A stretch of DNA of 64,000 nt, taken from the IMG/VR virus record IMGVR_UViG_3300021400_000252; one strand, 5' to 3'. A model generated the notes under the pieces. That model saw nothing but the letters and a program-made list of their open reading frames with translations, was not told the origin of the DNA and searched no databases. This DNA is from a virus. Taxonomy: Duplodnaviria > Caudoviricetes. Below, one piece after another: positions 3,185-61,228 of this stretch (within the stretch, counting starts at the first letter, position 1; each line of letters begins with the position of its first letter). Position numbers and translations under genes: made by a program.

Positions 3185-4045
3185 ATGACAAACGAACTTA
3201 TTTACACAGGTTGGAAGAGATGGGTTCCAACATTAGATGAATGGGCAGAGTTTTCAGTTAAGGCCTATTCACCTTATGAGTTGAAAGAAAATGAGTATTT
3301 GTTAGTATTCAATGAAGAAGATGGCAAAGAAAAACTTGCATCTCAATGGTGTTATGAAAACGGTAAATTAAGAAAGTTTGGAAGGGGATCAATCAATTTT
3401 AGAAGTAAAAAGAGCGCGGATAAAAATATATGTATAAAACCGAGAAATTCAGAACAAATCTGCGCAATTGATATGCTAAAAGACAGAGATAAAACTGTTA
3501 AATTATTAACTGGTACTTGAGGTACTGGTAAAACAATGTTATTAGTTACTGCTGCTTTAGAAGCATTAGAACAAAATGTTTTTGATAGAATTGTATGGAT
3601 TAGAAATAATGTTGATGTTAAAGATACTAAAGATTTAGGTGCTTTACCTGGTGAAGTTAATGATAAACTTATGCCATTTTTAGGACCTTTTATTGACCAC
3701 TGTGGTGAAGCAGGAGTTGAATGTATGCTTAGTAATGGAAAGCTTGTTATTGAACCATTACAGAGTCTTAGAGGACGTAATTTAGAAAGAACTTTAATTA
3801 TGTGTTCTGAAGCTGAAAACCTAACTAAAGAACATATTCAATTAATTATTGCAAGAGCAGCTGAAGGATCAGAAGTTTGGTTTGATGCAGATGTTCGACA
3901 AAGAGATAAAGCAATTTTTGAAAAATCAAAAGGTATCGAAACTATGATTGAGCGATTAAGTGGAAATCAACTATTTGGATATGTCCATTTAGTACAATCA
4001 GAAAGATCAAAAACCGCAGCATTAGCTGATTTATTAAATGATTAA
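3185..4045 (+). CDS. phoH: PhoH-family ATPase (TGA 3518-3520 read through)
   Basis: Walker A G-T-[TGA]-G-T-G-K-T, LGALPG, LRGR, EAENLT, ERS motifs; the two ORF-track pieces are in frame. Confidence 0.9.
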
Positions 4046-4068
4046 AAGAAGGAATAATAACAAAAATT

Positions 4069-4093
4069 AAACCGCATATTAGCGGTTTTTTTT
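4069..4093 (+). terminator. Rho-independent terminator followed by class A motif (4095-4103)
   Basis: AAACCGC-atatta-GCGGTTT plus T-tract. Confidence 0.8.
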
Positions 4094-4124
4094 GTTGTAT
4101 ATTATATTAATAGGAGATGATAGT

Positions 4125-4379
4125 ATGGCTAAAACTTATACAGAAAAAGAATTACAAACAATCTTAGAAAAAAATGGTAGCGATATTACTGTTAGTGAAT
4201 TAAATAAAAATAAAGTCTATATTTTTAGAATTAACAAAGAAGGCATGCCAATTAATAAAAAACACACTTTAGCAATTAATTTAAAAAACATGCTTGATAA
4301 AATCGGATTAAAAAGTATTATTTTATTAGATGATATAATTCAAGTTACTGAATTAGAGAGAGGTAAAGATAATGATTAA
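4125..4379 (+). CDS. Hypothetical protein
   Basis: AGGAG RBS before ATG 4125. Confidence 0.75.
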   Translation: MAKTYTEKELQTILEKNGSDITVSELNKNKVYIFRINKEGMPINKKHTLAINLKNMLDKIGLKSIILLDDIIQVTELERGKDND

Positions 4380-5723: not shown

Positions 5724-6158
5724 ATGATCGGAAAGATTTTACCTTATGAAGGAATATGAACAAGAGCAGAGGTTGAAGCAGATCCAGAGAATATTTATGT
5801 TTTTGGAGATAACTTAGCTGATGCTGAAACAGGATATGTTCCTTCTGTTACACAGGCAGTGATTAGGGGCTTACCAAATGCTTTTGGTATAATAACTAAG
5901 ATAGATAGAAAACTCTCACAAGAAAGTTTTTTAAATGATAGAAATTTTGGACAGTATAGATTCTATCTATACAATATACTTTTTAGTTTAAGAAATAAGT
6001 TAAAGGCTGGAAAAAATGTATATGTTCCAATGAAAGATGGACAAATTCTTTTAGGCACTGGAAAGGCACAAATGCCTGAAAAAGCTCCAATGTGTTTTGA
6101 ACTTTTATGTAAAACTTTTAATGAGTTATTTGATGAATTTGGAGATAAAAATGAATAA
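5724..6158 (+). CDS. Conserved phage protein with YVFGDN...QAxIRGxPNAxGIxTK motif (TGA 5757-5759 read through)
   Basis: AGGAG RBS, ATG 5724; GI[TGA]TRAEVEADPENIYVFGDN is in frame with the 5859 ORF. Confidence 0.8.
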
Positions 6159-14410: not shown

Positions 14411-14467
14411 ATTTTACTGATATTTTGTATATTATATAGATATATACTATAGATTGTGAGAAGATAT

Positions 14468-15466
14468 ATGTTATTACAATTAATCGTAATTCATTATGAC
14501 GAAGATGAGTCATATATTAAAAATTTATTAAATGTTTTAAAATTACAACAATGGTTTGATTTTAGAGATTTAGAAGTTTTAATCGAAAATGATGGAGATA
14601 AAGTTGTTTATGATAAATCACTTTTTGAAAATTATCCATTTAAAATTAGATATCATGTAAATGAGTGGAGTGGACGAAGTGGAGTTAGACAACATGGATT
14701 AAATCGTGCAACAGCTGATTATGTAATGTTTTGTGACTGTGATGATACATTTTTACGTTTTGATGCCTTGGCCACAATTAAACATGCATTAATAAAAGAA
14801 AAACCTGACGTATTATTTACTATATTTAAAACTAACTTTGTAGATGATAATGGATTAACAAAGGGATTTAGAGATTATTATAATGAGAATGTTTGGATCC
14901 ATGGAAAATGTTTTAGAACAAAATTTCTAAAAGATAATGATATTAGTTGGAATAAATCATTAAATAACTTTGAAGATGCTTATTTTGTTCGACTAGTTGA
15001 TGCATTTAGACCGAAGAAATTTGGAATTAATTTAGACCTATATGCATGGAAGTATCGTGCTACAAGTAGTACTCGTGGAGATGGTAAAACTGAAATGTTA
15101 GACTATCTAAATTGTTTAAATTCTCAAAGAGAAGCAATTAAAGCATACATTGAATTAGATAAATTAAAAGATGCTGGCGTTAAATTATTTATAACTATGT
15201 ATGAAGTTTATTTCTTAATAACTTCAATCGATTCAAATATAGATTTAGTTCGAGAATATACTGCACATAGAGAACAAGTTGAAAAAGAGTTTATTGAATT
15301 ATACGAAAAATATAAACAATATTTAGATTATGTTTCTCCAAGACTTGCTTCTACGTTATATACAGCATTAGTAAAGAGATTCTTTGAAGAAAAACAAGTG
15401 TATTTAGTTCCAAAAGATACATTAGAACAATTTATTGAAAATTTAAAACAAAAGTATTTAAAATAA
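14468..15466 (+). CDS. Glycosyltransferase family 2
   Basis: ENDG, RQHGL, YVMFCDCDD, HGK, FED. Confidence 0.9.
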   Translation: MLLQLIVIHYDEDESYIKNLLNVLKLQQWFDFRDLEVLIENDGDKVVYDKSLFENYPFKIRYHVNEWSGRSGVRQHGLNRATADYVMFCDCDDTFLRFDALATIKHALIKEKPDVLFTIFKTNFVDDNGLTKGFRDYYNENVWIHGKCFRTKFLKDNDISWNKSLNNFEDAYFVRLVDAFRPKKFGINLDLYAWKYRATSSTRGDGKTEMLDYLNCLNSQREAIKAYIELDKLKDAGVKLFITMYEVYFLITSIDSNIDLVREYTAHREQVEKEFIELYEKYKQYLDYVSPRLASTLYTALVKRFFEEKQVYLVPKDTLEQFIENLKQKYLK

Positions 15467-15479
15467 TATGGAGTGAGAA

Positions 15480-16460
15480 ATGTTATTACAATTAATAGTT
15501 ACTCATTATAAAGAACATCCTGGATATGTTGAAAGATTTTTAGATAGTGTAAAAGTTCAAGATTATATTGATAAAAACGATTTTGAAGTATTATTAATCA
15601 ACGATGGAAATGAAAAATTAATTAGTGAAAATCTATTATCTAAATATGATTTTAAAATAAAGTATTTAGTTAAAGATTGGTCTGGATTATCAGACTCTAG
15701 ACAATTTGGAATGGATCATGCTACTGCTGATTATATCATGTTCTGCGACTGTGATGATCTGTTCTCAAGGATAGATTCATTATATAAAATCTTAGAATGT
15801 ATTAAGAAAACTAATGCAGATTTTATTATTGGTAGTAGATTTCAAGATGTAAAAGGAAAAGTAGAAATGCTTCAAGCAAAATCTTTGATCGGAAGTTATG
15901 AAATACATGGAAAAGTATATAAACGTGCATTTTTACTTGAAAAGAATATTAAATGGAATAAAGATATTATTATTTGGAATGAAGATTTTTATTTTAATAA
16001 TCTCGTTCTTTGTGAAAAACCGAAGATTAGTTTAATTGATGACGCAATATACATTTATAAATATAGACCTGATTCAATTACAGATTTTAAAAAGAATAAT
16101 TCAATTGAAAAACAATTAGAGATTCGTTTATCACTAATTCAAGCTTATATATTAACATTAAAAGAATTAAAACTTAGAAATAATAAAGAATATTTTAAAA
16201 CAAAGTTAATTGACCTTTTATTTCAATGTTTTGATGTTGAAAAACGATTTAATATTAAAAACCTTGATCAATGGCAAACAATTCGTTCAGAGTTTTCAGA
16301 AGATTTTAAATTAATTAATTATAAAGATCTTATAAATCGTTTAACTTCAACTCCATTAAATCGACCAATTATTAATGATTTAATATTAGTTCAAACGCTT
16401 CCAGATTGGTTAGCTTCAAAACAAATAACTATAAATTTAAAAGAGGTAAAAAATGTTTAA
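15480..16460 (+). CDS. Glycosyltransferase family 2 (tandem paralogue)
   Basis: INDG, RQFGM, YIMFCDCDD, HGK, NED; same MLLQLIV start as the previous gene. Confidence 0.9.
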   Translation: MLLQLIVTHYKEHPGYVERFLDSVKVQDYIDKNDFEVLLINDGNEKLISENLLSKYDFKIKYLVKDWSGLSDSRQFGMDHATADYIMFCDCDDLFSRIDSLYKILECIKKTNADFIIGSRFQDVKGKVEMLQAKSLIGSYEIHGKVYKRAFLLEKNIKWNKDIIIWNEDFYFNNLVLCEKPKISLIDDAIYIYKYRPDSITDFKKNNSIEKQLEIRLSLIQAYILTLKELKLRNNKEYFKTKLIDLLFQCFDVEKRFNIKNLDQWQTIRSEFSEDFKLINYKDLINRLTSTPLNRPIINDLILVQTLPDWLASKQITINLKEVKNV

Positions 16461-16971
16461 TCAAAATTTGTACACAAATAAACTAGACTTAAGTTTAGCA
16501 TCTAAAAATAAAGAAGTATGTCTTTCTAAAGTTTATAGTAAATTCATGTTTAATAAACCATTAGATAGACTTCAAAATCTAGGGTTATATATTTATCCAG
16601 ATGGAAGAATGGTCGACACATTATCTCATGATGAGATTGATAAATTTTTAATCTCAAGTGGAGATATTAAACTTAATGGAGACTTCCAAGAAGTTAAAGA
16701 AGGAAGTCAATTCATGGATTTATGTAATTGTGTTCGTGTTAGATGTGATATAGGATTAACTATGGGTTGGATTATGCTTCCATGTGAAGAACTAACAAAT
16801 GAACAATATGAAAAGATTAGTATAATAATCGATGTGATGCTTTCATCAAATATAAATTTATATGTTTTCACACTCGACCAAACATGAGATAAAACATATT
16901 CTAAGTCATATTATGACTTTTCAGATGATGTATTAAAAGATATTAAGAGATATTATAAAACGCAAAAATAG
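16453..16971 (+). CDS. Hypothetical protein, paralogue of the C-terminal domain of 59621-61228 (TGA 16885-16887 read through)
   Basis: YIYPDG..H..ID..GSQFMD..NCVR; frame stays open to TAG 16969-16971. Confidence 0.75.
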
Positions 16972-17000
16972 ATATATCAGGCGCTTTATAGGAGAATTTT

Positions 17001-17645
17001 ATGATTAAATACTTTGTTAGAACTACTGGAGAACGATCTTTTGATTATTCTCCATTAAATGTTATACCTTTATATGATTATAATCATGATCCAATAAATA
17101 GTTTTATTAGTCAATTAGAGATTATAAGTGAATATGATGCTGTGTTATTAGAAGATGATCTTGTTTTATGTAAAGATTTTCAAAATGAGATTGAAAAAGT
17201 TATAGCTAAATATTCAGATAAAATAATTAACTTTTTCTCACGTCCTAAATATTATTTTCAAACAACTTTAACATTAGAAGATTTTACATATAACCAGTGT
17301 ACTTATTATCCAAAAGGAATCGGAAAAATTTTAGCTGAAGAAATGAAAAAGATTTTAAAGTGGTGGCCATCATCAGCAAGATTGTGGTCTCAAGTTGAAA
17401 GTAGAGCATTAATGAATTTAGGTATACCGCATATAATCTATAGACCTTGCTTAGTTCAACATAGTGATCATTCGTCAATATTACAGCCTGGAAAAGAAGC
17501 AAGAACAACTATTTGGTTTAAAGATTATTTAGATGAGTTAAATCTTGATTATAATAACTTAGATGTTTTAAAATATAGAAAAGAATTAAGTAAACTAAGA
17601 GATAAATACTTTAAAGAAGAGGTAAATAAAGATGTTAATCGATAA
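17001..17645 (+). CDS. GT-A fold glycosyltransferase (GT25-like)
   Basis: VLLEDD, YNQCTYYP, RPCLVQH. Confidence 0.7.
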   Translation: MIKYFVRTTGERSFDYSPLNVIPLYDYNHDPINSFISQLEIISEYDAVLLEDDLVLCKDFQNEIEKVIAKYSDKIINFFSRPKYYFQTTLTLEDFTYNQCTYYPKGIGKILAEEMKKILKWWPSSARLWSQVESRALMNLGIPHIIYRPCLVQHSDHSSILQPGKEARTTIWFKDYLDELNLDYNNLDVLKYRKELSKLRDKYFKEEVNKDVNR

Positions 17646-18294
17646 TAAAGCTGTCTTCTGGCAGGATTCGAATTCTATTATAATAAGTAATCATAGTGAT
17701 TTTAAAAAACAAGAAATAATTCAAACTAATGAAATAGTCTTTAATGGTCCACATATTAAATTTGTAGATAAAAAACCTATTTTTATAAATGAGCCAAGAA
17801 CATATACTTATGAACCTAATACTGTTTTTAGTAATATCAATATTAAGCCATCTATAAATAGATATATTAAAGATATAAAAAAGTTTAATAAAATAGCGGA
17901 GATCGGTGGTAGATATGGAAGCTCATCTATTTGGATACTTGATAATATGAACGAAGATGCATATTTAGATATTTATGAAGTAGATAAAGATTATGCAGAT
18001 ATTATAAAAGATAGATTAAAAGACTATAATAATTATGATTTAATTTACGGCGATGCACGAGAAACAATTAAACAAGATATAATTTATGATTTAATCTTTT
18101 TTGATTGTTCGCACATCTTTGACATAGATAAAGTTATTTTTGATAAATTAAAGAATAATATTGATGAAAATACTATTATTATTTTTGATGACTACTTTAT
18201 GCCTGACGTAAGAAAATTAGTTAGATATGCATTAAAAGATTATAAAAGCACAAATATTATTTATAGACAAAAATTCTTAACTGAAGGAGTTTAA
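17632..18294 (+). CDS. Class I SAM-dependent methyltransferase (Methyltransf_24-like)
   Basis: AEIGGRYGSS, DLIFFDCSH, IIFDDY. Confidence 0.8.
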   Translation: MLIDNKAVFWQDSNSIIISNHSDFKKQEIIQTNEIVFNGPHIKFVDKKPIFINEPRTYTYEPNTVFSNINIKPSINRYIKDIKKFNKIAEIGGRYGSSSIWILDNMNEDAYLDIYEVDKDYADIIKDRLKDYNNYDLIYGDARETIKQDIIYDLIFFDCSHIFDIDKVIFDKLKNNIDENTIIIFDDYFMPDVRKLVRYALKDYKSTNIIYRQKFLTEGV

Positions 18295-18295
18295 A

Positions 18296-19138
18296 ATGTT
18301 TGATGTAGACTTAGTCGTTCCATATGTAGATATGAACGATGAAAATTGGATAGAATTAGCTAAACAAAATAATATAAAAATTCAAAAAGAACGTTTTAGA
18401 GGACAAGGAGATTTTTTTAGATATTTCTTTAGATGTATTGATAAAAATCTTCCTTGGATAAATAACTTATTTTTAATCGTTCAAAGCAATTCACAAGTAC
18501 CAGACTTTATTAATATATCAAAAGTAAAGATAATAAAACATGAGGATTTCATTCCAAAAGAATTTCTACCTGTTTATAGTAGTTGTACTATAGAAATGTT
18601 TTTACAAAACATTCCTGGATTATCAGAACACTTTTTATATTTTAATGATGATGTATTTGTAATTAAACCATTATTAAGAACACAATTTTTCATTGAGGAT
18701 AAAGTTTGTCAAAGCTTCACAGATAGATTTCCAATAGGAATATACGGAAATCACGTTAAAAATGGATGTAAGTTAATTTTTGGAGATGATCATGTTGTTT
18801 CAATGAACCACTCTATTAAAACGTTGTTAAAGAGCAAATGCATCGAGTGTTTTAATATTTATAAAAATGAAATATTAAATTCAATCTCAAAAACTCGCAC
18901 TGAATTTAATTTTAATGTTTATCTATTTAGTTTTTATTTAAAAAAGATTGGAAAAACAATTAAATCTCAAATTCATAATACATTATACTTTAGAAATATG
19001 TCTAAATGTTTAGATAGTAAATTCAATCAAGTTTTATGTGTAAATGATGATGGATCAAATTTTAGTGTTTATGATGATGAAAAATTAAATACCTGGTTTA
19101 AAAATAATTTTAAAGATAAATCTAAATATGAAAAATAA
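18296..19138 (+). CDS. Stealth-family hexose-1-phosphate transferase
   Basis: CR1 DLVVPYVD, CR2 LPWINNLF...IEMFLQNIPGLSEHFLYFNDD, CR4 CVND...KSKYE. Confidence 0.9.
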   Translation: MFDVDLVVPYVDMNDENWIELAKQNNIKIQKERFRGQGDFFRYFFRCIDKNLPWINNLFLIVQSNSQVPDFINISKVKIIKHEDFIPKEFLPVYSSCTIEMFLQNIPGLSEHFLYFNDDVFVIKPLLRTQFFIEDKVCQSFTDRFPIGIYGNHVKNGCKLIFGDDHVVSMNHSIKTLLKSKCIECFNIYKNEILNSISKTRTEFNFNVYLFSFYLKKIGKTIKSQIHNTLYFRNMSKCLDSKFNQVLCVNDDGSNFSVYDDEKLNTWFKNNFKDKSKYEK

Positions 19139-19205
19139 GTCAGATAATGACTTATTTTTATTTGCTAAATTATTTGACTAAAAAATCTGTCTTATAAGGA
19201 GATAA

Positions 19206-47621: not shown

Positions 47622-47978
47622 TTAAAGTGGTTTTATTTGTTTTATATAGTCTATATTTAACCAACCCTCTCAAATTTTTGTTTGAGTAAATGAATCTCCA
47701 AGGTCAGCTTCAACACCCATAACTTGAATCATTTTAGCAATAGATTGGTTTACAGTTATTTTTAAATATTTTGAACTAGGTTTTCTAGTATTTTCCCATT
47801 CGTAAATTTTATCTGTTAATAATAATTCACTATTTAATTCAATAAGATAGCTTTTACCTACTGAATAAATATCACCAGAGTATTTAGGAATAAAATAAGA
47901 ATTTGTTTCTGGATCGTAAGAAGATGGAATAGCTAATTCTAGAGATAATAATTGTTTTTTAATTATGTCTGAAGGCAT
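47622..47978 (-). CDS. Hypothetical protein (TGA 47670-47672 read through)
   Basis: Read-through gives KI-W-EGWLN...KPL ending TAA just before the class A motif at 47609-47617. Confidence 0.7.
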
Positions 47979-48384: not shown

Positions 48385-49633
48385 CTTGTAAATCTTCTTC
48401 AGTAAGTCCATCAGCAGCTAGAGCTGCGGCTTCTGTTGGAATATCTTTCATAATCTGTGCTTCTTGATCCATTAATTCAGCTACGACATTTTGATCTAAT
48501 AAATTTAAGTTTTCTTTCTTACCACATAAGAAATCTAAAACTTGGAAATAGTATTCATCAAAGAAATCTTTATTTTCTTCAAGATAATTTTCTAATTCAG
48601 CATGTTTTGAAAATTGTAAATCTCTTCCTGTAACTTTATCTTTTAAAATTTCACCTGTTACTGGATCAACTAATGCTTCTGTTCTAGGAGATGGATGGAA
48701 TAAAATTTTAGCAGTTTCTATAACCTCTAAGAAGTCATATACTCTATCAATTCCTTTTCCAAATTTAACTGTAATAAATCCACCAGCATTTGTCATAATA
48801 TTAGTTCTATTTTTTACTACAACATAATGGAATTGCATTCCGTTAACCTTATCGGCATAGTCACTTTGAGCTTTAGATGAACTAATATCCGTTTTTAATA
48901 AACCTGTAGCAGTTGGAGCCGTAAATGTACGTGTACCAAATCTAATCTTAACACTTGGGAAGAATCTTAATGAATAACCACCAGATTCAGTATATGTTGT
49001 TGAGAACATTTCTTTTTCAATAGTTACTTGATTTATTACTAATAAAATATTATTTCTCTTAGGAAGATATTGAACCATTGCTCTGACAAATTTACCCATA
49101 GACTTAGCAATAGAAGCTCTTTGACCATTATCTTTAACAAATTCATTATCTAAATCAGCCATTGAAATTAAAGCTTTAGATGAATCTAATACAATCATAC
49201 CAATTTCATCATATCCTTGTAAATCGATAACATCTGAAAAAATTTCCTCAGCAGCTTTACCAGTAGTATCATACCTTAAGAAACAACTTTCATCATAAGA
49301 TAGACCATAATCAGATTTAAAATATGCACCTTGAGTTAATAGAGTATTTTCTCCATCAATCCAAAGACAAACTTTTCCAGGATTTTCTTCTTGATATCTT
49401 GCCATCATTGCTGCAGCGTAAGAAGATTTACCTGAATGTTCTACACCAGAAACAGTAACTAATTGTCCATAAGGTAAACCACCTTTAAATGATAAATCAA
49501 TTGGAAGAGATTTTAAAGGTAATTTCTTTAAATCTCTAGATGGATCACCAAATGAAAGAACTTTTCATTTTTTATTAGCGGAATTTATATTTGCAACCGC
49601 TTCTGCAAATGTTTTTGCTTCCTTTTTAGCCAT
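48368..49633 (-). CDS. recA: RecA/UvsX-like recombinase (TGA 49565-49567 read through)
   Basis: GGLPYG, Walker A GVEHSGKS (upstream of the ORF-track start), IDGE, VLDS, INQ, GGYSLRF, KNR. Confidence 0.9.
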
Positions 49634-50656: not shown

Positions 50657-51799
50657 TTATTCTCCAAATTCAGATCTAGGCCATTCAGGAATTAAGTTAT
50701 ACACATTATTATAAGTAATTAAAATTGGATTTGTTCTAATTACATCAGACTTAATTCCAAACTTAATATTAATTAAATCTGTAGTACAACTATTTAAGAT
50801 TGATTTAATGTCATAAGTATTAATTATAATTGAAATAGGAGCTTCAACCTTAGTTCCAAGTTCTAAGTATTCCATATTCTTATTCTTATCAATAATTGTA
50901 CATTCATTTTCATTTAAAACTAAATTAACTAGAGATGTTGTCTTTTCAAATAAATCGTCTGTTGACTTTCTAAAAGTGTCTAATCTATTTAAAACTTCAT
51001 AAAAAGCTTTAACTGGGAAATCAACATTATGACTATAATCTAAATTAAACATTCTCTTTGAAGATTCATAATTTGATCGAATTCTAGTAATTAAAATATC
51101 ATCAATATTAATATAAGAACATAAATAAACCTTATCTGAAACTAAAGATAACTTAGCTGTTGCATTATCAACTCCATAAGTAGCTTTAACATCCGTAGTA
51201 AATAACTTAAATAGATTTACAAAATGTTCACTTAACATTAATTCAGCATCAGTATTTAATTCAAACTGATTAAAACAGCTACCAATTCCAAATGTAAAAC
51301 ATCCATTCTTTGTTAAATAGAATAAATGATGGATTGGATCATCTGAATCCTTTACTTTCTTTACTTCTTTAGCATTAACATTTAAGATTGATTCCAAATT
51401 AGCTAAAGAAAAATCAAATTCAGAAAGTTTATTTTCAATTACTATCGGTTTAATCTGATTATTTAATTCTCTAACAATATATGGTAATGAATACTTTGAT
51501 TTGCCACTCTTAATTTTTAAAGATGTTTCTTCAAAAATTAATTCAATTTCTTCTGAAGCTAAACTTGAAACTAAAGTTAAGAATGCTTCAGCACCAACTA
51601 CAGCAGATTTATCTTCTGAATTGTCTGTTGGCTCAGCTTCTGCTTTTACAGAAACATAATATTCTTTATTTGTAACGCTTAAATATAATAAATTATCTTT
51701 AGTATTAAGCTTTACATCTTCAATATTCTTAGAATCTACACTACGTGCAGTACTAATTAATGAAACTAATTCTTTAATATTTTCTGTTTTTATTAACAT
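50657..51799 (-). CDS. dnaN: Beta sliding-clamp-like protein
   Basis: 380 aa, beta-clamp-like pattern (L.LSVTN..., LKIKSGKSKYSLP); clamp loader nearby. Confidence 0.65.
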   Translation of the reverse strand: MLIKTENIKELVSLISTARSVDSKNIEDVKLNTKDNLLYLSVTNKEYYVSVKAEAEPTDNSEDKSAVVGAEAFLTLVSSLASEEIELIFEETSLKIKSGKSKYSLPYIVRELNNQIKPIVIENKLSEFDFSLANLESILNVNAKEVKKVKDSDDPIHHLFYLTKNGCFTFGIGSCFNQFELNTDAELMLSEHFVNLFKLFTTDVKATYGVDNATAKLSLVSDKVYLCSYINIDDILITRIRSNYESSKRMFNLDYSHNVDFPVKAFYEVLNRLDTFRKSTDDLFEKTTSLVNLVLNENECTIIDKNKNMEYLELGTKVEAPISIIINTYDIKSILNSCTTDLINIKFGIKSDVIRTNPILITYNNVYNLIPEWPRSEFGE

Positions 51800-51848
51800 T
51801 ATTTCACCATACTTTCAATATTTTTATTATATATTATTATACAATATT

Positions 51849-53036
51849 TTATTGGTCTTCCCAAACTTTAGGGTCATCTGGATCCCATTCAATAACATCT
51901 TTTTTATTAGTTAAAACATCTATTACTGCTTGTTTAGGTAATTCACAATTTTCTTCAAGGATAATATCTTTTGCTTCTTCGAAAGACTTACCTTTAGATT
52001 CTAATTTCTTAAAATCATCTAAAATGTGGTTAGCTAACTCATCACCATACCAACGTTGAACATTATATGGGTCACAACTCATTGGAACTTTCATATAAGG
52101 TTTAGCTGAATCAATCATAATTTGTGGTAATCTTTCTTCTACTTCTTTATTATAGAAGTCTAGACATTCAACTAATATTTCATCATGTACTGAACAAACT
52201 AATCTAGCACCATATTCTTTTAATTTTTCATCAAAATAAATATTTACCATTGCTATCTTTGTTAAAGTAGCAGCACCACCTTGAATTCTTGCATTAAAGC
52301 ATTGTCTTTCACATTGTGCGATAGTTCCAGTATTTGATATTAAAATATAACCATCTTTTCTAGCTTGTTGTTGGAGCTTTTCAAAAGCTTTATCACCTTT
52401 ACATTCTTCAGCTTTAGCTAAATAAGATTTCATTTTATCAGTAACTAATTCTCTATCTTTACAACCTAAAATCGGATTAAAAGTCTCAGTTTTATTTTTA
52501 GTTGGATCCTCATATCGAATTTCAAATCTAGGTAAGAAATATTTTGGTAAATGTCTACGTCTACCAAACCAGTCTTCGACATAACCATACTTTTTTAAAC
52601 TCTCTTTTGAATAATCAATAGCTTCTTTTACTTTACTGAATTCTGCGAAGAAGTTATCAAGTAGTTCTTGACCTTCCTCTTTTGATTTACCCATTGTCAT
52701 ACCAGCTCTTGCAGCACCCATACCATAAGTAGATGCTAATAAAAGTTTTTTACCAATAGTTCTATTAGCTTTACCTTGTAAATTTTTATGTGTTTTATGT
52801 CCAGCAATAATTTTCTTTCCATCTATTTCTATTTCAGTACCTTCAGGATAAAATTCAAGATTATCTTCATAATTATTCTTTAAAGCACCAGCAGAAATAA
52901 CAGCATATAAGTCTTTACCTTCTAAGTATGCATTTAACATTTTTTCCTCACCAGATAAGTGACATGTTAAACGAGGTTCTTGAGCTGAGAAGTCTGAACC
53001 TACGATTTTTCGTCTAATTCTTGTTTTAATCTTCAT
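51849..53036 (-). CDS. polA: Family A DNA polymerase, C-terminal part (motifs A, B, C)
   Basis: DFSAQEPR, RTIGKKLLLASTYG, NARIQG, VHDE; own AGGAGAGG RBS. Confidence 0.92.
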   Translation of the reverse strand: MKIKTRIRRKIVGSDFSAQEPRLTCHLSGEEKMLNAYLEGKDLYAVISAGALKNNYEDNLEFYPEGTEIEIDGKKIIAGHKTHKNLQGKANRTIGKKLLLASTYGMGAARAGMTMGKSKEEGQELLDNFFAEFSKVKEAIDYSKESLKKYGYVEDWFGRRRHLPKYFLPRFEIRYEDPTKNKTETFNPILGCKDRELVTDKMKSYLAKAEECKGDKAFEKLQQQARKDGYILISNTGTIAQCERQCFNARIQGGAATLTKIAMVNIYFDEKLKEYGARLVCSVHDEILVECLDFYNKEVEERLPQIMIDSAKPYMKVPMSCDPYNVQRWYGDELANHILDDFKKLESKGKSFEEAKDIILEENCELPKQAVIDVLTNKKDVIEWDPDDPKVWEDQ

Positions 53037-53046
53037 AATACCTCTC

Positions 53047-54891
53047 CTAAATACTTATAGAATAAGTCTTATTTTGTTCAGAATAGCTTATTTCTTTAAT
53101 CTTGAATAAACCTTCATCTGTAACTAATAAATCATCCTGAGTTAAATCTTTACAATATTTATAACCATTATTTGTTTCTAATTCTTCATATTCATTAATT
53201 TCAAAATTATCTGTAAAATCTTTTTCACCATAAGTAGTTTCACCAACAAATAATGTTCTAATATTTGTACTACCACTTGGAATATTCTGAATATTAATTC
53301 CAGGAACTTCTACTCTTTCCTCTTCATCAGTTCCATAATTATCCACATAAGCAATATCACCACCAGAAGAAAATCTTCCTGTATCAGTTCCTAATTGATT
53401 TAGGTGGAATCTAATACGACCATCTGGCCAATGCTTACATAAGATTGGAATAGTATCAATATAAGTTGAAATTAATTTCATATAACCACGACGTTCTAGA
53501 ATATAACCAATTAATTTTGTAGGTTTTAGTTCATTCATTTCTTCTAGAATATCGCCACCAGTACCACGAGGATTTTCTTTATCAACAACTGGCATTTTTA
53601 AAATATCATATAATAAAATTGACAATTGAACTGGAGAGCTTAATGGAATTGGCCAATTTAATTGTTCAGATTTAGTTGCACCATATTTAAATCTATTACC
53701 TTCTTCATCAACATTTGGATATTTTTTCTTAATATCACTTAACGATAATTTTGTTTTCTTTGGTACATATACAATAGTCTTCTCATTAGCTTCTGGAGTT
53801 AATCTCCATTGATCAATTAGTGGTTTATATTGAGCCATTTCAACTTCAACCTTTTCGTCTAATTGTTCTACTAATCTAGTATATTTCTTCTTTAACATTT
53901 TACCATATACTTCATCAACTTTAATTCCAACTAATTCTTGAGCGGCTGTTGCTAATAAAATATTCATTTCTACTCTTGTAAATAGTTTAAATAGACGTTC
54001 ATTTCCTTCAGCTAATAAAGTTTTTAATTGGAATTCACAAACTTTATTTGTCATTAACGCATCTGTCGCAGCATATAATGCAAAAATATTTGGATCAGAA
54101 TCAGCATAGAAAGTATTTAAATATAAACCTTCTAGATTATATTTAGATTGTGTTTTATCGATAAACTTAGTATATAAGTATTTCAAACCTGCTAAGTCAT
54201 TTTCATCAATTAATCTAGCTGCAAGTTGAGTATCGTAATCAACTGGAACTAGTACTCCACAAGTACAATAAATAACTTCTCTATCGAATTTACCATTAGC
54301 CATAACAATTAATGGACATGGAACATCTTCATTTCTTTTTAATTTATGTTCAATCCAATATTCTAAATATTGTTGTGTTTCAACTTGAGATGGAGCAGTA
54401 AATTCTGGTTGCCATTTAGAACGTAATTCAGCTAAAAAATTAAATTCATCAGCAATATCTTTTTCAGTTAGTTGCCAGTCTAAACGCTTTTTTGTATGTG
54501 GGTCTCTGTGGTTAATAGGAATATATGCTTGTTTACCACCTGGATAATGTAAACATAGACCAATTATTTTACAAGTAATTGGATCCAATGAGTTATTAGT
54601 TTCGGTATCGACAGCTAATACACCAACCTTACAAGCTTCAAGAATATAATTATGAAATTCAGTTTTATCTGAGATAACAACAATATTTTTCTTTTGTTTT
54701 CCTAAAACTTTTAAAACACGTTCATGAATAATTGAAATTCTTTCATCAATAGAGATTTTATTAGATTTTAATACAGTTTTTATATCAGATTCAGTAGCTT
54801 CTTTTGCTTTAATTAAAGCTAATAAATCGTTAATAGATTTTTTCTTATTTTTATTTAGATCTATATCATCAAATAATCCTAAAATATCCAT
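53047..54891 (-). CDS. polA: Family A DNA polymerase, N-terminal part (3'-5' exonuclease and thumb)
   Basis: AVDTET, NGKFD, YAATD, TGRFSS, NIQNIP; ends in an extra ~55-aa domain. Confidence 0.92.
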   Translation of the reverse strand: MDILGLFDDIDLNKNKKKSINDLLALIKAKEATESDIKTVLKSNKISIDERISIIHERVLKVLGKQKKNIVVISDKTEFHNYILEACKVGVLAVDTETNNSLDPITCKIIGLCLHYPGGKQAYIPINHRDPHTKKRLDWQLTEKDIADEFNFLAELRSKWQPEFTAPSQVETQQYLEYWIEHKLKRNEDVPCPLIVMANGKFDREVIYCTCGVLVPVDYDTQLAARLIDENDLAGLKYLYTKFIDKTQSKYNLEGLYLNTFYADSDPNIFALYAATDALMTNKVCEFQLKTLLAEGNERLFKLFTRVEMNILLATAAQELVGIKVDEVYGKMLKKKYTRLVEQLDEKVEVEMAQYKPLIDQWRLTPEANEKTIVYVPKKTKLSLSDIKKKYPNVDEEGNRFKYGATKSEQLNWPIPLSSPVQLSILLYDILKMPVVDKENPRGTGGDILEEMNELKPTKLIGYILERRGYMKLISTYIDTIPILCKHWPDGRIRFHLNQLGTDTGRFSSGGDIAYVDNYGTDEEERVEVPGINIQNIPSGSTNIRTLFVGETTYGEKDFTDNFEINEYEELETNNGYKYCKDLTQDDLLVTDEGLFKIKEISYSEQNKTYSISI

Positions 54892-54972
54892 AAAGTCTCC
54901 TTATTTATAAATTAAGAGTGGACTTAATAACTTATAATCCACTCTTTAAATTAATTTAATATTAAATTTAAA

Positions 54973-55890
54973 TTAGAAACCCCAATTGAAATTATTACGT
55001 CCACTATTATTAGTAGTTACTGTTGGGTTTGTTTGAGCAGGTTGTTGAACAGTTTGAGCTTGTTGAGCTTGTTGAACTTGAGTTTCTGTTTGAACTGCTT
55101 GTTGAGAAGCAGTATTTGGTTGAGAAGCTACATTTTGATTTACATTAGTTTGAGCTGTTTGAACTGTTTGTGGAGTTTGAGTTGCTTGGTTTGTTTGAGC
55201 TGGAGCACTAAACTTACCAGTTGCAATAAACTCTTCCATTTCTTCAGCTGTCTTTTCTACATATGTAAATCCTTTAGTTCTGAAGTTTGCAAATGCACTG
55301 AAATCCTTTGGAATAGATGTGTCTGGGAATACTTGAGGTAAAGCTACATCCATTTGATAAGTTGTCTTATCAGCAGTCTTAACCTTAGTTAATGTAAATA
55401 AGAAACTACTTAATGGAGCATTTCCTAAAGATACACGCTTAGCATCTAATTGATCAATGAATCCTGCATTTCTTTCCCAAATAGTTGGAACTGGTTCTGA
55501 TAAAGCTCCAGTTACTGGATCAATATAAGATACTAACATCTTAATATAAACCTTGATTTCTCTCTTCTTAATTACCTTGTGTCCACCTTCAGCTCTAGCT
55601 GCCTTACAGAATGGACAACCTTCATCTAAACACTTAATACTTGTAAATCTGTTCTTTAAACCTGTATAACCTTGACTTTGGAATACAGTACCATGAACTG
55701 TATTAAACTCAATGTCATCAACAGAATCAAATGCAAATCTTACTAATGCATTCTTAACATTACCTTCAAACTTTAAAAATCTAATACCAGGACCAGCATT
55801 ACCTGAATCACCGTTAGCTTGAGCAGCCTTTCTAGCTTCGTTTTCCTCTACCATTTTCTTGTATTGTGCATAAGTCTTAATTTCTGCCAT
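54973..55890 (-). CDS. Single-stranded DNA-binding protein (gp32-like) with Q/T-rich tail
   Basis: FLK...VRF...H...C....CPFC zinc motif; position in the replication block. Confidence 0.7.
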   Translation of the reverse strand: MAEIKTYAQYKKMVEENEARKAAQANGDSGNAGPGIRFLKFEGNVKNALVRFAFDSVDDIEFNTVHGTVFQSQGYTGLKNRFTSIKCLDEGCPFCKAARAEGGHKVIKKREIKVYIKMLVSYIDPVTGALSEPVPTIWERNAGFIDQLDAKRVSLGNAPLSSFLFTLTKVKTADKTTYQMDVALPQVFPDTSIPKDFSAFANFRTKGFTYVEKTAEEMEEFIATGKFSAPAQTNQATQTPQTVQTAQTNVNQNVASQPNTASQQAVQTETQVQQAQQAQTVQQPAQTNPTVTTNNSGRNNFNWGF

Positions 55891-55933
55891 AATTAATAAA
55901 ATATCTCCTTATAAATTTTTTGTTCACAATTAA

Positions 55934-56905
55934 TTATACAATGATAATTTGTGATTTTTTACGTTTTATCTCATTTGTACAATTATTTATAGCGTTCCAA
56001 AATTCTTCATAGTTTAATTCTCCGACATCTTTTTTGTCAAGAGGTAATTCTGGTTCATAAAAAATTATACTTTTAGATAAATTCTTTTTTAATGTCTCAG
56101 CAAATTCTCTACCATGAACATCATTATCGAACATAATATACAATGTTTTTATTCCTGATTCATTAATTTGTTCAATTTGTGATGGTGATAAATTTCCAAG
56201 TGTTGCACATCCTGGAATTCCAAATTGGCTTGCTTTTAAAGCATCAAATGGACCTTCAGTTATTACTGCTTTAGTTTCACCATCTCTTATAATATTATAT
56301 AATCCAAAAACAGGTTTCGGAACGTCCTTGTCTAGACAAAATGTTTTTCTATCTATCGAACGAGTGTGCAACATAACTAAATTACCTTTAATATCATAAC
56401 ATGGAAAAACTGCAAGTCTGTGTTCAGCATCATATTTAAGATTAAATCTTTTTGCAGTTTCTCTAGTAATACCTCTGGTTTTAAAATATGGTGTCCAATC
56501 CTTAAATTCTTTTAGAATATTTTCATCGATATAAGCTTGATACTTTGAATAATTATAATTTCGTTCAATATCGTCACCTATAATAAACTTCTCACTAGTT
56601 TTTACACCATATTTTTGAATTAACCATTGTTTTGCTTCTTCTTCAGAAGTCTCGAAGCAATGAGCCACAAATGTATAAAATGGTCCTTTACTTGAACAAG
56701 CAAAGCAGTGATACACTCCATCTGATTCTCTTATATAACAAGATGGTTTTTGTTCTCGACCATTATTATGCACTGGACACGTTACTTTAATTCCAGAGCC
56801 TGTTTTACGATATGAAGATAACTTGCCATTGTGAATTAATATTTTTATCTCATCTAATATTTCTATTATTGGTTTATCTATAACATAATTATCTACATAT
56901 ATCAT
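55934..56905 (-). CDS. dnaG: DNA primase
   Basis: CPVH...HCFAC zinc finger; TOPRIM EGPFD and FDND. Confidence 0.9.
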   Translation of the reverse strand: MIYVDNYVIDKPIIEILDEIKILIHNGKLSSYRKTGSGIKVTCPVHNNGREQKPSCYIRESDGVYHCFACSSKGPFYTFVAHCFETSEEEAKQWLIQKYGVKTSEKFIIGDDIERNYNYSKYQAYIDENILKEFKDWTPYFKTRGITRETAKRFNLKYDAEHRLAVFPCYDIKGNLVMLHTRSIDRKTFCLDKDVPKPVFGLYNIIRDGETKAVITEGPFDALKASQFGIPGCATLGNLSPSQIEQINESGIKTLYIMFDNDVHGREFAETLKKNLSKSIIFYEPELPLDKKDVGELNYEEFWNAINNCTNEIKRKKSQIIIV

Positions 56906-56917
56906 AATAACACTCCA

Positions 56918-58255
56918 CTACCAAGGCATATCTTCACTACCGATTTCAAATTTCTCAATAGAAGCCTTTTCAGGAGAATAACTATCTTCAATAGACTGAT
57001 AATCTTCTTCAGTAGCGATAGTATCACCTTCAACTGGAATATAATTAAATGTTCCTACATTGAAATCGATTTGATATTTTAATTTATCTACTAATGCTCC
57101 ATCACGAGCTTTAGAAATATGAATTGTAAGAACTTTATCTTGCTTTTCTAACATTAAAATTGTTGTTCCATATTGACTGATCATATCAGAACCAGCAATT
57201 TGAGTAGTATTAGGGTCAGCTTTCTTACCATTTTCATCAGTAGAACCAGTTCTGTTCATTTGAGAAACTGAAATAATAGGAATTTGAGTTAGTACTTGAA
57301 GATTTTTAATATCTTTTGCAATATTTGCAATAGCTTCATATCTGTTCTTAGTTTTATATTTACTTTCATCTTCCATTAATGAATACTGGTCAATAAATAA
57401 AATATCTAGATTATACTTTTTAATAAATGCTCTTAAATCAGAAACAGTTGGATATCTTCCTAACATATCAGAAGTTAAAACTTTTAAAGTACAATTCATT
57501 CCTGGTAATGATTTAATATATTGTTCATATTCTTTTTGAATAAATAAATCACCACGATTAATACTTGTATTTTGAATATTACCAAACATTGTATCTACAC
57601 GAGCACCGATTTTATCTTGAGACATTTCTCCTTCATAAAATCCAACATTTAAACCTTGTCTAGATGCTTCAACTGCCATTTTAACTAGTAATTGTGTTTT
57701 ACCAATACCTGTTCTGGCTGCAATAACTAGATTTTCATTTTGTCTATCAATACCACCAATTGCTTGATCTAATTCTGGTAGACCAGTTGAAATATAATAT
57801 TTAGATTTATCCTTTGTTTTATCTAAATAATGATCATATCTAGATGTATCTTGGAATAAATCAACACAAGTTATACCAACATTATTTGAAGATAAGCTAT
57901 CATAAGCATTCTTAAATAACTTTTCAGCTTTTTCAGATTGACCACTCTCTAATAATGATTTCATTTCATTGAATTGAACTCTTAAAAACTCTGCTTTATA
58001 TTGTTTTGTTAGTTCAGAAACTAAGAATGAATCTGGTTCAGTTACTTCTGTAAACTGAAAGTCTGTAAAAATATTTTTAAACGTTAATTTATCTGGTACT
58101 CTATTATACTTTTCATAATGGTTTTTGATATACTCAAATTCAGCAGTATAATCAAAGAAATAATCTTTTGTTAAATTATTATTTATGATTATTGAATAAT
58201 CACCAGTCTCTAAAACTTTATTTAATATTTGAAATTGTGCGACAACATTCACCAT
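56918..58255 (-). CDS. dnaB: Replicative helicase
   Basis: ARTGIGKT, EM, FIDQY, SQMNR, GSD, KAR. Confidence 0.9.
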   Translation of the reverse strand: MVNVVAQFQILNKVLETGDYSIIINNNLTKDYFFDYTAEFEYIKNHYEKYNRVPDKLTFKNIFTDFQFTEVTEPDSFLVSELTKQYKAEFLRVQFNEMKSLLESGQSEKAEKLFKNAYDSLSSNNVGITCVDLFQDTSRYDHYLDKTKDKSKYYISTGLPELDQAIGGIDRQNENLVIAARTGIGKTQLLVKMAVEASRQGLNVGFYEGEMSQDKIGARVDTMFGNIQNTSINRGDLFIQKEYEQYIKSLPGMNCTLKVLTSDMLGRYPTVSDLRAFIKKYNLDILFIDQYSLMEDESKYKTKNRYEAIANIAKDIKNLQVLTQIPIISVSQMNRTGSTDENGKKADPNTTQIAGSDMISQYGTTILMLEKQDKVLTIHISKARDGALVDKLKYQIDFNVGTFNYIPVEGDTIATEEDYQSIEDSYSPEKASIEKFEIGSEDMPW

Positions 58256-58261
58256 ATTAAA

Positions 58262-58957
58262 CTATTCTTCTCCTTTCGCTAAAGCTAAATTACGTTTATC
58301 AGTTCCGAATAATTCAATATTTTCACTTAAATTACAAATTCTACTACATAAACGACTTCCTAAAGACACAATAGCTTCTTTAGGTGTTAAATTAGATGTG
58401 TATATATTTGACTTACCGTAAGAAATTCTATTATCAATTAAATTTAATAAATAATTTGCTTCAAAATCTGTACTAGGTTTTGCTGCAATATCATCCCAGA
58501 CAACTAAATCTGCTTCTAGAATGTTCTTTTTAATAAAATCTATATATTCATTTGGTTCATCAAAACTAGCTTTTAATTCGATTAAAAACTTTGGTACACT
58601 AATAAACATTGCACGACATTTAGTATCAGATTTTAACCAAATCTTATTAAAGAAAGATTGAATTAATCTTATAGACCAACTTGTTTTTCCATTACCAGAT
58701 ATTTTAGAATATAAATATAATGAACGTCCATCATTAATAAAATCTAAAATATTGTCTGAAATACTTGCTAAACGTTTGTAAGCATCTAAATCTTTTCTAT
58801 CTAATGGACTATCTCCAATAAGAGTTAATTCAATATGATTCTTTTGTCGTTCTGTTAATAACGAATAGTCATAAAGAACATCTGTCTTAAATTTTCTAAG
58901 ACAGAATTCTTTATCACAATCTTTGTGACTACAGTTATTATATAAATAACACTTCAC
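58262..58957 (-). CDS. DnaC/IstB-like helicase loader ATPase
   Basis: SGNGKTS, LVVWDDI, IYTSN, SRI. Confidence 0.85.
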   Translation of the reverse strand: MKCYLYNNCSHKDCDKEFCLRKFKTDVLYDYSLLTERQKNHIELTLIGDSPLDRKDLDAYKRLASISDNILDFINDGRSLYLYSKISGNGKTSWSIRLIQSFFNKIWLKSDTKCRAMFISVPKFLIELKASFDEPNEYIDFIKKNILEADLVVWDDIAAKPSTDFEANYLLNLIDNRISYGKSNIYTSNLTPKEAIVSLGSRLCSRICNLSENIELFGTDKRNLALAKGEE

Positions 58958-58973
58958 AACAATACCTCCTAAA

Positions 58974-59525
58974 TTAATTTAGTCCAGTACTTCCAAATCC
59001 ACCATCGCCTCTTGAAGACTTTTCAGTAAAGAACTCATCTGGAGTTAATCCAGAATAAACTTTTGCGCCATTACCAATCTTTACTTCTACCATTTGCATG
59101 ATTTTTTCATCACATTTAATTGTTTGATACTCATCTGAAGTATTAATTACATGATAATGAATTATTCCTTGATAAGAATAATCAATAATACAAGCTCCAA
59201 CAACTAATTTCTTCTTAGTTGCGATACCAGACTTATTAAAATCGATTAAAGCTGAATCACTTGGAATCTTCATATATAATCCAGATGGGATTAATAAATC
59301 AGAATGTGGTGCAATAGTAATTTCACCAGTGGCTAAAGTAAAATAAGAAGTATTATCTGGTACTTCACTAGCCTCATTTAGAAATAATTTTGGATTTTTC
59401 TCAAATAACTTTGCTCTAAATTCCTTAGTGTTAGCAGGAATAAAGCCATCTATACCAGCATTAGCTGGAAATTCGAACTTAGGTTCCTTAACTTGATATT
59501 CATTTGTTAATAAAAATTCTACCAT
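58974..59525 (-). CDS. dut: Trimeric dUTPase
   Basis: AGID, KSG, IDYSYQG, RGDGGFGSTG. Confidence 0.92.
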   Translation of the reverse strand: MVEFLLTNEYQVKEPKFEFPANAGIDGFIPANTKEFRAKLFEKNPKLFLNEASEVPDNTSYFTLATGEITIAPHSDLLIPSGLYMKIPSDSALIDFNKSGIATKKKLVVGACIIDYSYQGIIHYHVINTSDEYQTIKCDEKIMQMVEVKIGNGAKVYSGLTPDEFFTEKSSRGDGGFGSTGLN

Positions 59526-59620
59526 ATTAAATCCTTTCATATTTTATTTTAATATACATTAAATAATACAATAAAAAAACCACTACTTAAGAAAATAGTG
59601 GTAATTTTTAATTTAAAATA

Positions 59621-61228
59621 TTAAAATTGATCTAAATAACCTTTGCTTAAATCTTTTTCTAATTCGTAATCTGTATTATCTAAATCTTCATTAATTAAAT
59701 CATCAAAAATAAAATCATAATTAGGTTTTTTACCTAGCTCTTCTAAGAATTTAGAACGATAAAACATTTTAATTGAATCTATAATATCTTGAGCTGTATA
59801 ACCATCTCAAGCTTTATAGACTTTACTTTGTTCTGTTTGAGTACTTACTTGAACTTCTCGTGACTTATTTAAAACTTGTTCTAGCCAATGTTCTAAAACA
59901 TTATATTGAGTAGTTGTTAAATTATTATTAGGAAGTACACAGTAAGGAAGGATCCAAGAATCTTTACCACCACGACGTCTAATACGAACACAATTTATTG
60001 CATCCATAAACTGACTTCCATCACCATAGTCTAATTCATTAAGTTTTTGTCCATCTTTTAAACTAATATATCCAGCTCTAATTAAATATTTATCTATATC
60101 TGTGTGATTTTGTGTTTTAATTATAGTACCATCTGGCATTATATAGAAACCACCAGTAGTAATATCTCCATTATAACCATAGAAAGACTTAATTTTATCA
60201 ATACAATCATCTTGATTTGCTAAAGCTTTAGATATATCTAACTTATTCCAATATTCTTCTGTTAAATCTTCTAAATCATTATTTTTAGAAATATTTTCTT
60301 CAGTTTTACCTTTATATTTAATGTCATAAACATCAGACACTTTATACATTCCTAAAAGGTCTGTATCTTTAACTTCATCTGGGTTTTTTAGTTCAAATTT
60401 TAGAATTGATCTATAGATATTTTCTTTTTCAGCCTCAGCGACCTGTTCAATTTGATTAATTTTTTGTTTTATATCTAAGTCAGGACATTCGAAAAAATTT
60501 TTCCAAGAATAGCCAGTTCCATTTTCATTCTGTAATGCGCATCTTCAAACTAAAGTAAATGGATTACTCTTACTATCTTTTAATATAAATCCTAAAGTAA
60601 CAATTACGTCATTTTTTAAGTTAGTTTTACTACTTAATGCACGTAAATGCATTGGTAATTTAGTTGCTTTGAGGTCGGCTTTATTTCCAACCATCTTAAC
60701 TTCAACTCATAATCTTCTCGTTTCATTTTTTATTGTATCTGTATCAACAAAAACTAGATCTGGAACACCATAAGTTTTTGTGTTTCCAAAAGTTGTATGA
60801 GTATTGTTTTTTGAATCATTATCTAAGTTTGAATCAGAATTTGGATTTGTTAATTGATTATAAACAGCATCTCCATAAAAACATTTTCCTAAAGAACTTA
60901 GTTTAGTTTCAAAAGCATTTAATAATTTTGATTCGACGATATAAGCGTTATATAAAAATTGAAAACGTTTCCACCATTCCATATTATTAAATGGAGGTCT
61001 ATTTGGGATTGTTTGAGCAAGTGTTTTTATCTTTTTTGCTATTTCTTCAGGAACTTGCATTAAATCATGTCCAGATTTTGTTCGAGAAGCTGGATTTTCA
61101 CTCGATCCAGTCCATGCAAATTCGCCATTTTTAAAAATAGCTTCAAATGCATTAAAAACGTCTTCATATTTTAGTAATTGATCATCTAAAAAATCACTTG
61201 TATTTTCTTCTTGTTCTACAAATTTCAT
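59621..61228 (-). CDS. 535-aa fusion: putative PD-(D/E)xK nuclease domain plus paralogue of 16453 (TGA 60707, 60545, 59807 read through)
   Basis: Continuous frame from ATG 61228 to TAA 59621; VPDLVF...L[TGA]VEVK; class B motif at 61267-61275 (-). Confidence 0.75.

Follow-up and report, generated by a model that had tools for sequence, protein, structure and literature searches.

Is TGA read as tryptophan (Trp) in the phage DNA of IMG/VR record IMGVR_UViG_3300021400_000252 (Duplodnaviria; Caudoviricetes) and, if so, why is it used there so sparingly? The stretch that we analyzed, 64,000 nucleotides in length and referred to here as the window, was originally predicted to carry 20 in-frame TGAs in 14 genes. 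Every one of these positions proved to hold an in-frame TGA of the coding strand, and reading TGA as sense fuses the described gene fragments into 14 open reading frames (ORFs). The 20 TGAs are sense codons, and they occupy a Trp position wherever homologs are informative, with the qualification that the TGA at 42612 could be either a true stop or a sense codon and that the TGA at 16885 is probably sense, an assignment made without homolog support. Annotation of the window under the standard code (code 11) consequently loses or splits 14 of its 66 genes, including those for PhoH, RecA and the giant fiber and much of a glycan-synthesis cluster.

In-Frame TGA Codons in the Window

As predicted, genes in the window otherwise stop at TAA or TAG: in a greedy set of 66 ORFs called with TGA as sense, 52 end in TAA and 14 in TAG. 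Comparison of codes by coding density gave 0.916 under code 11 and 0.967 with TGA as sense (a gain of about 5 points), and no gain with TAG (0.917) or TAA (0.913) as sense. A 21st TGA, at 15474, is not a codon of the gene starting at 15480 because it lies inside that gene's ribosome-binding site (RBS). The window has a G+C content of 28%, and TGG is the dominant Trp codon, as had been claimed, with a TGG to TGA ratio of 192:20 overall and a single TGA beside 26 TGGs in the fiber of 2875 amino acids (aa).

We consider it extremely improbable that the TGAs arose as errors of sequencing or assembly or that they mark pseudogenes. Exact matches to the window were a JGI 3300002641 contig and the beginning of ENA ERZ28612966 scaffold_206 (130.7 kb). 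Independent assemblies from several samples have the same TGAs (three of them in locus L025, one in L024 and the PhoH TGA in L033), which are therefore not assembly errors. Moreover, the frames run cleanly through conserved domains, related phages have the same pattern, and nothing was found in favor of error or gene decay. No TGA/TGG polymorphism between strains was detected among 66 shared Trp codons.

The Amino Acid Encoded by TGA

Homolog columns, the Walker A motif of PhoH and an internal repeat of the fiber agree that TGA is read as Trp, and from these comparisons of sequence we regard the assignment as established at the informative sites. When TGAs of the related phages described below were aligned with the window or its strains, they faced W in 94 cases, TGA in 33, F in 19, Y in 18 and G in 5 (of ~220). 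The profile of TGG columns in the same comparison is similar (W 166, TGA 94, Y 45, F 42). Seven of the window TGAs (3518, 21198, 26698, 26710, 26821, 33420, and 47670) face a TGG-encoded Trp in homologs or internal repeats. The fiber repeat, [ILV]QW...W.DL, is genuine, with copies at residues 557, 1983, 2463, and 2609. At the PhoH column all 120 database homologs have W, within the motif G-x-W-G-x-G-K, and PDB PhoH has A. The W of the homolog P0001 at this site comes from translating the same TGA under code 4 and so is circular; only codons read from DNA were counted.

The assignment of TGA to glycine (code 25), as in Gracilibacteria, Absconditabacteria, and their phages, was considered because in PDB alignments the PhoH TGA falls on a small residue, Ala, and the RecA TGA on a conserved Gly, the second one in the G-K-G-S motif of E. 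coli. Glycine would also account for TGG remaining the common Trp codon. However, Gly is found in only the 5 relatives' columns noted above, against 94 with W, the PhoH codon is TGG in six relatives as well as W in 120/120 homologs, and the tRNA(UCA) described below has the identity marks of Trp and is similar to the phage tRNA-Trp. Code 25 was rejected on the relatives' columns, and we give it next to no chance.

Table 1. Positions and contexts of the in-frame TGAs and of two gene groups in the window.
Feature	Position	Strand	Context	Observation
TGA	3518..3520	+	Gene 3185-4045, PhoH Walker A (G-T-TGA-G-T-G-K-T)	Homologous codon TGG in 6 relatives, TGA in 9 others (these 9 at 49-80% identity)
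TGA	5757..5759	+	Codon 12, DUF7831 gene 5724-6158	AGGAG RBS before ATG 5724; Pfam DUF7831 match from residue 8
TGA	16885..16887	+	Codon 145/172, gene 16453-16971	Frame open 28 more codons to TAG, ending just before next gene's RBS
TGA	19509..19511	+	Gene 19206-19856, glycan cluster	ORF fusion, TGA sense
TGA	19581..19583	+	Gene 19206-19856, glycan cluster	ORF fusion, TGA sense
TGA	20434..20436	-	Codon 35, gene 19900-20538	Faces I or V in two relatives; hydrophobic column
TGA	21198..21200	-	Codon 231, Asn-synthase-like gene 20541-21890	W in 5/5 full-length homologs
TGA	21855..21857	-	Codon 12, gene 20541-21890	AAAGGAG RBS before GTG 21890; homologs W, I, L or F
TGA	23111..23113	+	Codon 213, gene 22475-23812, C-terminal alginate-lyase-like domain	ORF fusion; Pfam Alginate_lyase2 at residues 289-419, downstream of TGA
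TGA	26698..26700	+	Codon 191, UDP-glucose-dehydrogenase-like gene 26128-26946	W (TGG) in 3 relatives; PDB homologs F or I
TGA	26710..26712	+	Codon 195, UDP-glucose-dehydrogenase-like gene 26128-26946	W in 3 relatives
TGA	26821..26823	+	Codon 232, gene 26128-26946, upstream of catalytic Cys motif	W in 3 relatives; aromatic or Gly in PDB alignments
TGA	29792..29794	+	Codon 136, tail-fiber gene 29387-31720	ORF fusion; PHROG tail-fiber matches downstream of TGA
TGA	33420..33422	+	Codon 559, 2875-aa collagen-like fiber 31746-40373	I-Q-TGA aligns with I/V/L-Q-W in three other repeat copies
TGA	42612..42614	+	12 codons before TAA, gene 41178-42650	Next gene's RBS and ATG come after that TAA
TGA	47670..47672	-	Codon 103/118, gene 47622-47978	W in G001 and G002, TGA in G003, F in G004
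TGA	49565..49567	-	Codon 23, RecA 48368-49633, between N-terminal helix and Walker A	TGA in same column in G001; D in G002 and G004; G in E. coli RecA
TGA	59807..59809	-	Codon 490, 551-aa gene 59621-61276	Same TGA in strains L024 and L025; homolog column variable, uninformative
TGA	60545..60547	-	Codon 244, gene 59621-61276	1656-nt frame open with TGA sense; conserved in L025
TGA	60707..60709	-	Codon 190, gene 59621-61276	1656-nt frame open with TGA sense; conserved in L025
Glycan-synthesis cluster	14456..26946	mixed	GT2 (two), methyltransferase, Stealth, Asn-synthase-like, alginate-lyase-like, GT1, radical SAM, UDP-glucose-dehydrogenase-like (Pfam)	
Core replication genes without TGA	50657..58957	-	Clamp, split PolA, primase, DnaB helicase, loader	0 TGA also in G001 orthologs

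A PDB search with the Asn-synthase-like protein of gene 20541-21890 gave no match. The 5' part of gene 59621-61276 has been exchanged in the 244-kb strain (window 60266-61265 versus L024:11116-12258), where there is a weak GIY-YIG match. The flanks of the exchanged region are 99% and 86% identical, and it looks like a replacement of the homing-endonuclease type.

The Phage and Its Suppressor tRNA

The window is part of a T4-like rumen phage of ~244 kb, with the sample names pointing to the sheep rumen. A 99%-identical strain is present on a 243.9-kb scaffold (ENA ERZ28612955 scaffold_18), which was followed for 85 kb from the end of the window, and in all 156 of the ~244 kb of the phage were covered. 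Beyond the window this strain has T4-like portal, Gp23 capsid, sheath, tube and baseplate genes, along with a ROOL RNA. There were no close relatives among the INPHARED phage records.

A search for a tRNA-Trp(UCA), which had been proposed as a check on the original prediction, revealed a 96-nt tRNA with the anticodon UCA at L032:12712-12807 of the 99%-identical strain, 66.2 kb past the window end (Rfam tRNA, 57.6 bits). The identity marks of Trp, A1-U72 and G73, are present in this tRNA, whose D and anticodon arms are like those of the phage's own tRNA-Trp(CCA). Its length is due to a 26-nt extra arm, in the loop of which is the sequence U-C-C-A-A-A, like the anticodon loop of tRNA-Trp(CCA). 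Selenocysteine decoding was considered and rejected: the ARAGORN label "SeC" is due to the anticodon alone, the acceptor and D stems are of 7 and 4 bp where 8 and 6 bp, respectively, would mark a tRNA-Sec, and the TGAs stand in Trp columns (no search was made for SECIS elements).

The ROOL RNA (Rfam RF03087, 248 bits; L032:13735-14352) is situated between the suppressor tRNA and the first of two tRNA arrays (L032:14794-18831 and L095:13942-17490). Together these arrays have ~37 tRNA genes, which cover nearly all amino acids and include tRNA-Trp(CCA), and they adjoin genes for YqeY-like, nucleotidyltransferase-like (CTP_transf_like), and tRNA 2'-phosphotransferase-like proteins. No tblastn match to a tryptophanyl-tRNA synthetase (TrpRS) or to release factor 1 (RF1) was obtained in the 156 kb covered.

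Related Phages and Their Code-Change Genes

Relatives were identified via RecA, which led to G001 (IMG/VR UViG_3300033463_000007, 232 kb), and via a PhoH alignment, which led to 19 loci; G001, G002, G003, and G004 were taken whole, G002 being a fragment. The distant relatives, with ~40% mean protein identity to the window phage, are all TGA-recoded. TGA makes up 0.48, 0.39, and 0.49 of the Trp codons in G001, G003, and G004, respectively, and their coding densities rise from 0.70, 0.74, and 0.72 under code 11 to 0.93, 0.90, and 0.92 with TGA as sense, a gain of 0.17-0.23. The closest relative, the G002 fragment, has a TGA share of 0.17. Two further fragments, L048 and L049, have no internal TGA, and two ORFs of L048 end in TGA with a TAA or TAG 3-7 codons downstream; because of these features we conclude that the clade also includes members that use the standard code.

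In G001, trpS (324 bits) and prfA (472 bits), encoding TrpRS and RF1, are adjacent, lack TGA and are directly upstream of homologs of the lysis genes, whose counterparts in the window are at 27061-29291. A TrpRS without TGA is found in G001, G003, G004, and G005, and RF1 in G001 only, with none in G003-G005. Each relative with a TrpRS has a tRNA(UCA) at most 2-3 kb from it, which in G003, G004, and G005 is of the normal length of 75 nt. The nearest named enzymes to the G001 TrpRS are those of Acholeplasmatales, Anaeroplasma, and Onthovivens (54-55%), and a scan of genome contigs with this TrpRS gave only matches of 30-42% and no hint of a host.

The tRNA(UCA) gene of G001 (L016:14676-15035; G001 174676-175035) is split after U34 by a 290-nt insert ending in G. 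Its joined exons form a perfect UCA cloverleaf, and neither ARAGORN nor the Rfam tRNA scan picked up the gene. For the insert, the Rfam group I intron gave a weak full-length match (17.7 bits, E 0.03 in a 441-base search). Immediately after RF1 and ahead of the lysis-cassette homologs of G001 is a gene for a papain-family cysteine protease with nine in-frame TGAs (L016:19098-19991; 179098-179991). A 5.7-kb insert in the replication module of G001, which the window does not have, contains both a 61-nt element resembling a tRNA that keeps the acceptor, D and T arms but lacks the anticodon arm (L007:1501-1561; 206885-206945) and a tmRNA-like ARAGORN call adjoining a tRNA-Pro (209640-210045).

Distribution of TGA Among Genes

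The share of TGA among Trp codons is 0.10 in the window and 0.18 in the next 76 kb, compared with 0.78-0.96 for the A-ending codon of the other A/G pairs in the window and 0.78-0.98 for the Lys, Glu, Gln, Leu, and Arg pairs in both regions. TGA is thus under-used about eight-fold relative to the preference of this genome for codons ending in A.

TGA is also distributed unevenly. Half of the window TGAs (10/20) are in the glycan-synthesis cluster, where TGA makes up 0.21 of Trp codons versus 0.06 elsewhere (Fisher p=0.004). This cluster spans 12.5 kb, and three of its genes are on the opposite strand. G001 lacks a counterpart to it and has its TrpRS-RF1 operon at that place. Virion genes carry TGA, and RecA and PhoH have one each. 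The genes for the polymerase, primase, helicase, clamp, loader, and nuclease are free of TGA in both the window phage and G001. The family A DNA polymerase (window 51849-54891, minus strand) is encoded by two adjacent genes of 614 and 395 aa, a split that is kept in G001. The original prediction emphasized that the recoding reaches RecA; the gene does have its TGA, although it is not special in this respect, as TGA is also present in RecA and its neighbors in G001, and one neighbor has it in the window phage as well.

Of the 16 TGA-bearing genes of the window phage, 15 also have TGA in their G001 ortholog, and the per-gene TGA shares of the two phages are correlated (Spearman rho 0.50, p=2e-4). 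Inheritance of individual sites was initially indicated by a pooled odds ratio of 5.4 (p=8e-6), a signal that was lost on shuffling of labels within genes (P=0.25). What is conserved between the phages is, therefore, which genes bear TGA and not which codons. The idea of one TGA per gene was likewise rejected, as the number of genes hit was not in excess (14 versus 15.7 expected), and there was no 5' bias in the position of TGA within window genes. The suggestion that single TGAs act as translational gates is plausible in so far as a gate would fit the gene-level pattern; neither a one-per-gene excess nor a 5' bias accompanies it.

Explanations for Sparse Recoding

We think it probable that the phage imposes opal suppression on a standard-code host and that TGA is kept sparse by the cost of doing so. 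In such a system the phage tRNA(UCA) would insert Trp at UGA within a host possessing release factor 2 (RF2), making each UGA a contest between the suppressor tRNA and termination. The cost of this contest would hold TGA at ~10-18% of Trp codons despite AT pressure, and would be borne only by certain genes, those made later or at lower yield. Core replication genes, which would be required before the suppressor builds up, would remain TGA-free, and the recombination, glycan-synthesis, fiber, and virion genes, with one to five TGAs each, would be delayed or attenuated by them. The window lineage may be at the low end since it apparently does not have the TrpRS and RF1 of its TGA-rich relatives.

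The nucleotide after TGA may also be related to suppression. A purine follows each of the 20 TGAs in the window (12 G, 8 A), versus 63% of TGGs and ~68% of other codons ending in A (NNA; binomial p about 5e-4), a signal that was found post hoc. A purine 3' of the codon favors nonsense suppression in E. coli, and the signal, if real, would fit weak suppression in competition with RF2.

Several observations weigh against phage-imposed suppression as we have described it. The tRNA(UCA) was found in the 99%-identical strain and not within the window's own contig, and the absence of TrpRS and RF1 refers to only 156 of the ~244 kb of the phage. The standard code and RF2 of the host are presumed. The lysis cassette of the window phage has no TGA and five TGGs, unlike the heavy recoding of lysis genes that has been published. 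The lysis regions of the window phage and G001 gave no sign of a peptidoglycan hydrolase, and the nearest enzymes to the G001 TrpRS make a mollicute-like host possible. The purine signal is also less clear outside the window: over the next 76 kb a purine comes after 22 of 27 TGAs (p=0.09 alone), the preference was not seen in L034, the closest relative, and in G001 a preference specific to TGA (0.73 versus 0.58 for TGG) was rejected as a general effect of NNA codons.

Some of these observations are what would be expected if the host itself used code 4, as a Mycoplasmatales-like bacterium without RF2, and the phage simply followed it, with the preference for TGG arising from the phage's own tRNA-Trp(CCA) or from weak codon bias. 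The undetected hydrolase, the papain-like protease in the lysis region of G001, the similarity of the G001 TrpRS to enzymes of mollicute-like Bacilli, the low G+C content (28%), and the lack of any clear use of TGA as a stop in the window phage are all in keeping with a code-4 host. In the Mycoplasmatales, however, Trp is encoded mostly by UGA and there is no RF2. The contrast with these bacteria that the original prediction drew is apt, as TGG prevails here by ~9:1, and this difference likely reflects suppression imposed by a phage and not a host-wide code. In an AT-rich genome following code 4, TGA would be the preferred Trp codon; its share here is 0.10-0.18, when the other pairs have 0.78-0.98 A, and in a host without RF2 there is no obvious cost to hold it down. 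In addition, the TrpRS, RF1 and whole 10-kb blocks of the relatives are TGA-free, the signature of genes that are read before the code changes, and relatives that use TGA as a stop exist. Acholeplasma-type lineages, moreover, read UGA as stop. We therefore regard a code-4 host as quite unlikely. We also consider it unlikely that the recoding is recent or transitional, with a newly gained suppressor tRNA, TGA accumulating by G-to-A drift, and sparseness merely a matter of time. A path from suppressor gain to TGA accumulation was proposed by Borges et al. (bioRxiv 10.1101/2021.08.26.457843), and a recent origin is compatible with a gain in density that is only at the detection threshold (~5 points) and with the lack of TrpRS and RF1 in the 156 kb covered. 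Nevertheless, the original suggestion of a recent or transitional state is not supported by the relatives: those at ~40% identity are all recoded with TGA in the same genes, from which it follows that recoding is a trait of the clade, with the window lineage and G002 at its low end. The PhoH Walker A TGA is common to nine relatives at 49-80% identity, the share of 0.17 in G002 points to a low state that is stable in the subclade, and an A-bias of 0.8-0.96 means that neutral drift would quickly raise the TGA share.

A further and more tentative idea, which we would not expect to hold as a whole, is that of a graded series in which the load of sense TGAs tracks the code-change kit across the clade. 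Its steps would run from L048 and L049 (no internal TGA), to the window phage (10-18%, tRNA(UCA) only), and to a level of 39-49% in G003 and G004 (tRNA and TrpRS) and in G001 (tRNA, TrpRS, and RF1). As parts of the same idea, suppression in the kit-poor window phage might be so weak that TGA survives only before a purine, and the extra arm of its suppressor tRNA, by imitating the CCA anticodon loop, might let the host TrpRS charge it. If such a series were true, the steps of a code change would be directly comparable in living relatives.

Comparison With Known Recoded Systems

The closest parallels to phage-imposed suppression in the window phage are the TGA-recoded gut and rumen phages of standard-code Firmicutes hosts reported by Borges et al. 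(bioRxiv 10.1101/2021.08.26.457843), among them the Jade clade (~200 kb, Firmicutes hosts), which has an operon of TrpRS, RF1, and suppressor tRNA; in two Jade phages a TrpRS and RF1 operon is located upstream of the lysis cassette (same source). Like these recoded phages, the window phage has in-frame TGAs where Trp is expected, a phage-borne tRNA(UCA), and a jumbo genome of low G+C content, from the ruminant gut, whose replication core is in the standard code. As in Jade, the lysis genes of its relative G001 are immediately preceded by a TrpRS-RF1 pair without TGA. The window phage differs in that TGA forms only 10-18% of its Trp codons and the density gain of ~5 points equals the published cut-off for a recoded phage, so that sparse recoders are probably under-counted. 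Unlike Jade, its lysis cassette lacks TGA, TrpRS and RF1 were not found in 156 kb, the glycan cluster occupies the site of the G001 operon, and the suppressor tRNA of its strain has the 26-nt extra arm; the likeness to Jade is to its published description.

With code 4 of the Mycoplasmatales and Entomoplasmatales the window phage shares the reading of UGA as Trp by a tRNA-Trp(UCA) that resembles tRNA-Trp(CCA), but here TGG is dominant and the decoding tRNA is phage-borne. The resemblance to code 25 of Gracilibacteria and Absconditabacteria is limited to a low-GC genome with UGA as sense, as the homolog columns here are Trp and not Gly. Block-wise dual coding has been described in crAss-like phages (Mgcod; bioRxiv 10.1101/2022.06.29.495998). 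The likeness is that the standard code suffices for some classes of genes and others need the alternative one, and the difference is that the window phage has no sharp blocks, its single TGAs being scattered over several modules.

The window phage does not represent a new genetic code; it is a low-use case, with about one Trp in ten encoded by TGA, among known recoded gut phages. As TGA-to-Trp recoding in gut phages was already established, that picture is unchanged. What a phage with a low load of TGA adds, when set against TGA-rich relatives for which the sequences of TrpRS, RF1, and suppressor tRNA are accessible, is a comparison in which the limits on stop-codon reassignment can be asked about, and the same comparison bears on whether single TGAs time gene expression.

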